Shown: one piece after another, positions 2-299 of the stretch
Position numbering within the stretch: position 1 is the stretch's first letter
Layout of the letters: every line of letters begins with the position of its first letter
DNA from: Escherichia coli
GTDB lineage: Bacteria > Pseudomonadota > Gammaproteobacteria > Enterobacterales > Enterobacteriaceae
Length of the DNA: 300 nucleotides
Assembly: GCF_003334335.1 (NCBI RefSeq)
Contig: NZ_QOWQ01000222.1
Direction: 5' to 3' (one strand)
Notes under the pieces: generated by a model
The model's database searches: none
What the model was told of the DNA's origin: nothing
Seen by the model: only the letters and a program-made list of their open reading frames with translations
Translations under genes and position numbers: made by a program

Positions 2-77
2 TGGTGGGTCGTGCAGGATTCGAACCTGCGACCAATTGATTAAAAGTCAACTGCTCTACCAACTGAGCTAACGACCC
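2..77 (-). tRNA. tRNA-Lys (anticodon UUU), complete, 76 nt with encoded CCA
   Basis: The reverse complement of 2-77 reads GGGTCGTTAGCTCAGTTGGTAGAGCAGTTGACTTTTAATCAATTGGTCGCAGGTTCGAATCCTGCACGACCCACCA. It folds by hand into a canonical cloverleaf: acceptor stem GGGUCGU/ACGACCC, D-arm GCUC-AGUUGGUA-GAGC, anticodon stem GUUGA/UCAAU with loop CUUUUAA (anticodon UUU, complement of + 42-44), variable loop UGGUC, T-arm GCAGG-UUCGAAU-CCUGC, discriminator A, then CCA. It matches the E. coli-type tRNA-Lys sequence as I recall it. Which lysT-family paralog (lysT/W/Y/Z/Q/V) cannot be told from this window, so no symbol is given. Confidence 0.95.
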
Positions 78-111
78 ATACGGGTGTTACCTGAAAGATT
101 TTTACTCGGGG

Positions 112-128
112 CCAATCTTTAAGATTGG
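112..128. other. 17-bp perfect palindrome CCAATCTT-T-AAGATTGG overlapping the orphan CCA end
   Basis: + 112-119 ccaatctt is the exact reverse complement of + 121-128 aagattgg, with a single central base (t120). As RNA it could form at most a 6-bp stem with a 5-nt loop. A third copy of the motif, aaagatt at + 94-100, can pair with aatcttt at + 114-120 instead, so two mutually exclusive pairings exist. Confidence 0.55.
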
Positions 129-143
129 TGGGTCGTGCAGGAT
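126..143 (-). repeat. orphan tRNA-Lys 3'-end fragment (tRNA positions 59-76: AUCCUGCACGACCCACCA), third copy of the tRNA 3' terminus
   Basis: + 126-143 (tggtgggtcgtgcaggat) is identical to + 2-19 and + 224-241, i.e. the last 18 nt of the tRNA including CCA. The flanking base 125 (t) also matches position 1. Identity stops abruptly at 144 (g, versus t at position 20), which is inside the T-loop, and nothing resembling the rest of a tRNA lies upstream of it. Confidence 0.85.
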
Positions 144-168
144 GACTCGCTTCGCTCGCCCTACGGGC

Positions 169-184
169 CGTTGCTGGCGCAACG
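169..184 (-). other. inverted repeat / predicted RNA hairpin, 6-bp stem and 4-nt loop
   Basis: + 169-174 cgttgc is the exact reverse complement of + 179-184 gcaacg; the loop is 175-178 tggc. It sits in the GC-rich centre of the spacer and no U-tract follows. Confidence 0.5.
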
Positions 185-197
185 TTATCCTTCACGC

Positions 198-220
198 TTA
201 ACATCTGAGTTTGATGTTAA
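198..220 (-). other. inverted repeat / predicted RNA hairpin, 8-bp stem and 7-nt loop, starting 3 nt downstream of the upstream tRNA's CCA
   Basis: + 198-205 ttaacatc is the exact reverse complement of + 213-220 gatgttaa; the loop is 206-212 tgagttt. In the minus-strand transcript this is UUAACAUC-AAACUCA-GAUGUUAA. The stem is AU-rich (6 of 8 pairs) and no U-tract follows on either strand. Confidence 0.6.
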
Positions 221-223
221 AAC

Positions 224-299
224 TGGTGGGTCGTGCAGGATTCGAACCTGCGACCAATTGATTAAAAGTCAACTGCTCTACCAACTGAGCTAACGACCC
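224..299 (-). tRNA. tRNA-Lys (anticodon UUU), complete, 76 nt with encoded CCA
   Basis: Positions 224-299 are 76/76 identical to 2-77, checked base by base, giving the same cloverleaf; the anticodon UUU is the complement of + 264-266. The 5' end is at 299 and the CCA is encoded at 224-226 (as tgg on the + strand). Only one base of 5' flank (300) is visible, so the upstream neighbour is unknown. Confidence 0.95.

Follow-up and report, generated by a model that had tools for sequence, protein, structure and literature searches.

Two identical tRNA-Lys genes in the interior of the lysT operon

We analysed a 300-nt stretch of Escherichia coli DNA (contig NZ_QOWQ01000222.1), referred to below as the window, which carries the tRNA-Lys(UUU) genes lysY and lysZ and, between them, what by its sequence is a tRNA-linked repeat (TLR) of a short form. 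The window is an exact copy (300/300) of E. coli K-12 MG1655 at L001 3208-3507, within the lysT operon, whose gene order we read from the annotation and whose flanks in K-12 are cpoB and nadA. An earlier note on the same letters had linked their layout to the lysT operon; the full-length match, the K-12 gene names lysY and lysZ, the gene order and the cpoB/nadA flanks show that this assignment was correct. Taken as a whole, we consider it very probable that the window is an interior part of the lysT operon, that its two genes are identical mainly through purifying selection, and that the TLR is a decayed and dispensable remnant of a tRNA copy.

ARAGORN calls a tRNA-Lys with anticodon ttt (from position 34; UUU at 34-36) at 2-77 and again at 224-299, both on the minus strand, and the Rfam tRNA model (RF00005) scores each gene at 79.2 bits against a gathering score of 29. 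According to a repeat finder run on the window, lysY and lysZ are identical at 76/76 nucleotides with a start-to-start spacing of 222, a match that is far beyond chance. Both genes end in ...ACCCACCA, so CCA is encoded in both, while the plus-strand base that adjoins each CCA on its 3' side is t at position 1 and c at position 223. The claims of the earlier note on these points, namely two identical 76-nt tRNA-Lys(UUU) genes with encoded CCA, a 222-nt period and a differing base just 3' of the CCA, are thereby borne out by ARAGORN, Rfam, the repeat finder and the letters themselves; the ARAGORN run on the window that it had proposed as a check calls both genes.

The operon is transcribed from right to left in window coordinates. 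Previous work has shown that its seven tRNAs are made as a single transcript of ~1100 nt from the lysT promoter, that RNase P first removes the terminator and then frees the pre-tRNAs singly in the 3'-to-5' direction by cutting at each tRNA 5' end, and that RNase E cleaves in the long spacers, including lysY-lysZ, only if RNase P is defective (PMC4176162). RNase II and PNPase, followed by RNase T, trim the long 3' trailers of the lys pre-tRNAs, and the six lysine tRNA genes of E. coli have one and the same sequence (PMC4176162). A consensus scan of the window found neither a promoter-like site nor a terminator in the direction of the operon, as expected for an operon interior. Two terminator-like matches on the plus strand (169-184 and 81-93) lie antisense to the operon, at TLR hairpin B and at a leader hairpin, and are probably incidental. 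Matches to the window are present in all 5,426 complete E. coli genomes, at 3 to 11 places per genome. The locus is already known and thoroughly characterised, and nothing sets the window apart from the K-12 lysY-lysZ interval.

Table 1 Features of the window, and the interrupted tRNA-Lys arrays at loci from other genomes. Positions are those of the window unless a locus is named.
Feature	Position	Strand	Basis or remark
lysY, tRNA-Lys(UUU), 76 nt, CCA encoded	224..299	minus	ARAGORN; Rfam tRNA; equals L001 3431-3506, b0747 in NC_000913.3
lysZ, tRNA-Lys(UUU), 76 nt, CCA encoded	2..77	minus	ARAGORN; Rfam tRNA; equals L001 3209-3284, b0748
TLR unit, short form, 98 nt	126..223	minus	RtT match; precise absence in strain 2D; fold z = -3.52
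18-nt direct repeat bounding the TLR unit	224-241 (lysY 3' end) and 126-143 (TLR tail)	minus	
Hairpin 0, UUAACAUC-AAACUCA-GAUGUUAA, lineage-specific 5' part of the unit	198..220	minus	fold
Closing helix, 5' strand CGUGAAGGAU	187..196	minus	pairs with 134-143; single-sequence fold, RNAalifold
Hairpin B, CGUUGC-GCCA-GCAACG	169..184	minus	comparative alignment, fold, RNAalifold
Hairpin C, GCCC-GUA-GGGC	158..168	minus	comparative alignment, fold, RNAalifold
Hairpin D, GC-GAA-GC	149..155	minus	compensatory changes GC/AU/CG/UA
Junction GAGUC	144..148	minus	between hairpin D and tail
TLR tail AUCCUGCACGACCCACCA	126..143	minus	exact copy of tRNA-Lys nt 59-76
Closing helix, 3' strand (first 10 nt of the tail)	134..143	minus	9/10 pairs, A x G mismatch 192/138
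True lysY-lysZ spacer, 48 nt, the lysZ 5' leader	78..125	minus	sole spacer in strain 2D, 4 substitutions
Interrupted tRNA-Lys arrays	L008 ~6190-7870 (+); L104 ~4500-5330 (-); L105 8740-10260 (+); L067 2340-2620 (+)		

A short-form TLR directly follows lysY

Besides the two genes, the repeat finder reports a third copy of the tRNA-Lys 3' end, 18 nt long, that the earlier note had overlooked: 126-143 is identical to 224-241 and to 2-19 at 18/18 nucleotides. This copy covers T-loop nt 59-60, the 3' strand of the T-stem, the 3' strand of the acceptor stem, the discriminator base and the CCA. It forms the end of a 98-nt element, Table 1, which begins at position 223, directly after the CCA of lysY, ends at position 126, and lies on the strand and in the operon of lysY.

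The element is matched by the Rfam family RtT (RF00391) with 54.4 bits against a gathering score of 45, over a reported span of 126-292 that overshoots the true element, only the 3' two-thirds of the model being truly matched. TLRs were first seen by Egan and Landy in 1978 and Rudd listed 22 copies in ten K-12 loci in 1999; they are recognised by a 3' end of 18-19 nt that exactly repeats the 3' end of the stable RNA gene directly upstream (PMC8144298). In the K-12 lysT operon a TLR-type element follows each of the tRNA-Lys genes (5/5).

The structure of the unit is documented in several ways. Folded in isolation, the unit has z = -3.52, and 0/200 shuffles fold as well. RNAalifold on 20 short-form elements recovered the closing helix and hairpins B and C independently. 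In the short-form alignment 94.7% of the cells are paired, against 28-47% when the partners are slid, and four pairs show compensatory change, which affects hairpins B and D as well as the closing helix, where Lys and Arg elements differ by UA to GC. Across 110 diverse elements of the family, hairpins B and D are kept with 45 and 27 different stems respectively, and the stems exceed those of shuffles in length. The 5' strand of the closing helix is minihelix-like: it agrees at 8/10 positions with the 5' strand CGU+GCAGG+UU of a tRNA-Lys minihelix.

The minimum free energy fold of the whole spacer was tried as the structure of the TLR and set aside in favour of the comparative structure, the isolated-unit fold and RNAalifold. 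A separate observation from folding is a 6-bp hairpin at 112-128 on the minus strand (CCAAUC-UUAAA-GAUUGG), in which the CCA of the TLR tail pairs with the start of the lysZ leader. As modelled, this hairpin could mask the tRNA-like end of the tail.

TLR units are present or absent as precise blocks

The 222-nt period of the two genes is made up of 76 nt of tRNA, 98 nt of TLR unit and 48 nt of true, ancestral spacer, and it is because of the TLR unit that the period is 222 and not 124. The operon of strain 2D (L124, NZ_CP059003.1, 1092-1795) has the same seven tRNAs, with long spacers of 35, 51, 48 and 33 nt, exactly the lengths that remain after the TLR tails in K-12. Aligning K-12 with strain 2D over the operon reveals four precise internal gaps (100, 98, 98 and 99 nt), and all four internal TLR units are absent from strain 2D. 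When 126-223 is taken out of the window, what is left is the lysZ-lysY interval of strain 2D, with 0 differences in the tRNAs, 4 substitutions in the 48-nt spacer and a period of 124 nt. An intermediate arrangement is found in strain SCPM-O-B-8794 (L071 1330-2155), which is without the lysT and lysW units only and keeps the lysY and lysZ units. In 4272 of the 5426 complete E. coli genomes at least 80% of the window is matched at a single place, and ~21% are without a full-length match.

Kluyvera, Citrobacter, Pluralibacter, Enterobacter, Pseudescherichia and Klebsiella have lysY-type units, with the same hairpin 0, at comparable positions. This shared placement indicates that the units are old, and their absence would reflect deletion between the 18-bp direct repeats; the repeat would let a unit drop out cleanly, as in strain 2D. 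Each unit of the lysT operon is a clean presence/absence polymorphism among E. coli strains, so that natural isogenic-like comparisons are available.

The units of lysW and lysY differ at 5/98 positions. The larger blocks valT-lysW-TLR and valZ-lysY-TLR (L001 3510-3888 and 3209-3585) resemble a segmental duplication of ~303 bp, and the TLR units of lysT and lysZ are a second similar pair. The TLR downstream of lysQ (L001 2845-3000, minus) has features of its own: it is flanked by a duplicated block consisting of an 18-nt tRNA end and ATGTAAAAAAGCGCCCTAAAGGCGCTTTTTTGCTAT (the terminator), and it contains an inverted copy of the T-arm (GATTCGAACCTGC). Its label in the PGAP annotation is 'RtT sRNA, processed from tyrT transcript', though it lies in the lysT operon.

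The wider family and interrupted tRNA-Lys arrays

We surveyed the family in one genome per species with a degenerate core pattern, and the at least 120 loci obtained, like their taxonomic range, are a lower bound and no census. Among the matches listed, loci come from Enterobacterales, Thioalkalivibrio, Amphritea, Marinobacterium, Salinisphaera, Chromatiaceae, Gilliamella and others; the module stands behind tRNAs for Lys, Tyr, Arg, Ser, Pro and Gln, and in every case the junction reads GGUUCGA, module, AUCC; of 88 TLRs that have a tRNA nearby upstream, 74 have a tail equal to its 3' end at 18/18 nucleotides, with at least 11 anticodon classes and 18 distinct tails; and the short form is confined to Enterobacteriaceae, where it stands behind Lys and Arg(ACG) tRNAs only. 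When the upstream tRNA is left out, the 5' strand pairs better with its own tail than with foreign tails (sum 141.3 vs 127.1 +/- 2.5; 0/20,000 permutations). That tail and 5' strand both track the neighbouring tRNA, over at least 11 anticodon classes, is a useful by-product of this analysis for an unexplained family.

Some ~30 matches to the core pattern (L028-L030, L077, L088-L090, L043, L048 and others) have no tRNA nearby and no CCA tail. They lie in genomes of Thioalkalivibrio, Thiohalobacter, Thiogranum, Budvicia and others, one example reading ATCCAGTGGTTTCAA...CATGGATA. They may belong to another repeat family with the same GCCCGAAGGGCGAG hairpin, or may be chance matches.

In Photorhabdus caribbeanensis, P. 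asymbiotica and one metagenome-assembled genome of Enterobacteriaceae, a 64-nt module sits exactly between T-loop nt 58 and 59 of arrayed, full-length tRNA-Lys-like copies. On excision of the module in silico, ARAGORN calls a 76-nt tRNA-Lys in 16/16 Photorhabdus copies. Two of the excised copies equal the real tRNA-Lys of that genome; the others have acceptor-stem mismatches or a CUU anticodon. The CUU anticodon appears after excision in the L104 copies at 4564 and 4922 (minus) and is found in no intact tRNA-Lys of the fetched loci. The tyrT units of E. coli read AAGGUUCGA, module, AUCCUUCCCCCACCACCA.

Further ideas about the module were examined and dropped. Matches in phage records proved to be mis-filed Salmonella chromosome contigs, and those in plasmid records were almost all megabase-size, non-mobilizable records, so carriage of the unit by phages or plasmids was rejected. 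A hammerhead-like reading, in which the long-form GGAUGAG-stem-CGA was compared by eye with CUGAUGAG-stem-CGAAA, fails at three invariant core positions. A search of Rfam at permissive E-values returned no ribozyme family, only RtT and tRNA.

Interpretation and alternative explanations

For the identity of lysY and lysZ we favour very strong purifying selection on tRNA-Lys, which would be its main source, recombination within the array adding copy-number changes at most. In 24 fetched loci, which come from many enterobacterial genera, the 76 nt of the E. coli tRNA-Lys recur without change, single substitutions being seen in other lineages, and since the same tRNA-Lys is found across genera, purifying selection is sufficient and homogenisation is not needed. 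The earlier note had instead proposed concerted evolution or gene conversion, to keep the gene bodies of a multi-copy array alike while their flanks diverge; the process would be gene conversion or unequal crossing-over across the array. That recombination within the array occurs is indeed indicated by the 3 to 11 window matches per genome and by the gain and loss of TLR units, and the close similarity of the lysW and lysY units points the same way. In Citrobacter youngae, each TLR tail shows the same allele as the tRNA upstream of it (GACCC or GCCCC in a single operon), which implies local copying between repeats ~100 bp apart. However, C. werkmanii (2+2; L010), Kluyvera (2+1; L117) and C. 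youngae (1+1; L120) each have both a U4/A69 and a compensated G4/C69 allele of tRNA-Lys in one operon, and in the first two of these G4/C69 is carried by the gene that precedes the terminator, a pattern of diverged paralogues and not of concerted evolution. Homogenisation of the array is thus not efficient, and we do not see what a concerted array should show, paralogues more alike than orthologues and species-specific variants in all copies. Local copying of tails and turnover of units stand, but conversion of the gene bodies, as proposed in the earlier note, is not required and is weakly supported; as the cause of the identity of lysY and lysZ, concerted evolution across the array seems to us quite unlikely.

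As to the origin of the unit, TLRs would be copies of tRNA genes that have a conserved, structured insert in the T-loop, between nt 58 and 59, and the short form of the window would be a decayed remnant of a tRNA-Lys copy in which the minihelix-like 5' strand alone has been retained. One could go further and see in the module of ~64 nt an insertion or intron-like element that targets T-loop nt 58/59, with the TLR of the window as a decayed relic of it. The same module and the same junction behind six kinds of tRNA, the interrupted Photorhabdus copies that excision restores, two of them to identity with the real gene, and the precise indels with 18-bp repeats at their flanks all argue for such an element. 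On the other hand, several genera have orthologous units at one and the same place in the operon, which indicates that these are old and vertically inherited, and their absence is explained by deletion between repeats; the module is essentially absent from genuine phages and mobilisable plasmids, carries no transposase, integrase or ribozyme signature (Rfam gives RtT and tRNA only), and no recent insertion event was observed. We regard an element of this kind as doubtful, if possible, and hold as tentative the broader proposal that the module colonises tRNA copies at T-loop 58/59 across the Gammaproteobacteria, the E. coli TLRs being relics whose tails are matched by local gene conversion. If true, T-loop colonisation would explain by what mechanism the repeat family, a puzzle since 1978, came about; the interrupted Photorhabdus arrays suggest how the family arose and provide a direct experimental handle. 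The stretch of a tRNA gene from the T-loop to the 3' end is a common target of integrases, which leave it behind as a direct repeat. Since the 18-nt repeat of the window starts in the T-loop, it might be taken for the attR scar of a phage or island integrated in tRNA-Lys. But only 80 nt lie between the repeats, and these are a conserved structured module rather than island DNA; the locus is flanked by cpoB and nadA, its neighbours are tRNAs and it has no integrase; and such an arrangement is found at five places in the operon and after at least 11 tRNA species. With no integrase and an interval of 80 nt, we rejected an attachment-site scar, which is very improbable.

The preferred reading of the unit as a decayed tRNA-copy remnant has a counterpart on the side of function, where the TLR would be a transcribed, structured and dispensable part of the lysY 3' trailer. 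The alternative is that it is a selected functional RNA, whose tRNA-like tail and closing helix would serve 3' processing or protection of the lysY trailer, or would give a stable small RNA like RtT or RrA/B/F. Its conserved structure with many compensatory changes, the covariation of the 5' strand with the tRNA-specific tail, the spread of the family across the Gammaproteobacteria and the K-12 rttR annotation, which ends exactly at a TLR tail (L002 2067), all favour a function, as does the binding of Hfq and CsrA by the TLR RNAs of rrn operons, which are the only three members shown to do so (PMC8144298). We take structural conservation and covariation with the tail, both read from sequence comparison, to suggest some constraint at the RNA level. 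Yet strain 2D lives without the four internal units, and so do without a full-length window the share of E. coli genomes given above; probes for the lysY-lysZ spacer show precursors only, in RNase P mutants, with few intermediates in the wild type (PMC4176162), which suggests that no stable RNA product arises from this spacer. Furthermore, rttR has been lost sporadically among E. coli lineages (PMC3318445), the TLRs of tRNA operons score <0.01 for predicted CsrA binding, the claim of a role of rtT in the stringent response has been withdrawn, and in the words of one study 'TLRs have no known function' (PMC8144298). A literature search for a link of Hfq or small RNAs to lysY-lysZ found nothing relevant. 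The absence in strain 2D, the precursor-only probe signals and the sporadic loss of rttR weigh against an essential role, and we judge it unlikely that the unit is a selected functional RNA.

Some of our observations also weigh against the reading we prefer. The 5' third of the RtT alignment is forced onto the body of lysY, with several non-canonical pairs and a 44-nt insertion, which is why the Rfam boundaries overshoot the element. The short-form alignment is made up of closely related sequences, which keeps its covariation statistics modest, and in the minimum free energy fold of the whole spacer GAAGGAUA is paired with the lysZ leader further downstream and the closing helix is left unformed. 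The figure of ~21% of genomes reflects a coverage threshold, the base-level check of the indels being made on one TLR-less genome, strain 2D. The descent of the short form from a tRNA copy interrupted in the T-loop is deduced from other genera and from the 8/10 match to the minihelix strand. Finally, gene conversion among the tRNA bodies may take place in E. coli itself.

The locus is a textbook case, and the reported pair of genes matters little beyond showing that the tRNA operon was correctly recognised. What is of interest near the window is the origin and function of the TLR family, not the tRNA genes.

Comparison with known systems

The prototypes of the family are the TLRs of the tyrT-tyrV operon (rttR). 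Like the unit of the window, they lie just downstream of a tRNA with which they share strand and operon, and their last 18 nt equal the 3' end of that tRNA. They also share hairpins B, C and D, the GAGUM/AUCC junction and the closing helix between 5' strand and tail. In contrast, the unit of the window is of the short form, without the GAUGAGAACC...GGUUCGA segment and the first hairpin, and scores 54 bits with the RtT model where the tyrT units reach 133-137 bits. Its tail is that of tRNA-Lys and theirs that of tRNA-Tyr, and RtT has been reported as a discrete stable RNA whereas no stable product has been reported for the window unit.

The RNAs RrA, RrB and RrF, downstream of 5S rRNA in rrnA, rrnB and rrnD, belong to Rudd's family as well; they likewise repeat 18 nt of the 3' end of the stable RNA upstream, and their transcription is by read-through (PMC8144298). 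They differ in having GGA motifs and in binding Hfq and CsrA, a property not predicted for the 19 TLRs of tRNA operons, including that of the window, all of which fall below the score already quoted for CsrA binding (PMC8144298). The RNA 3'ETS-leuZ resembles the unit in being derived from a spacer or trailer of a tRNA operon (PMC8144298), but no evidence of Hfq binding or of a sponge function was found for the lysY-lysZ spacer. Attachment sites in tRNA genes share with the window unit the direct repeat of a tRNA 3' segment that starts in the T-loop, from which the unit differs in being without integrase or island.

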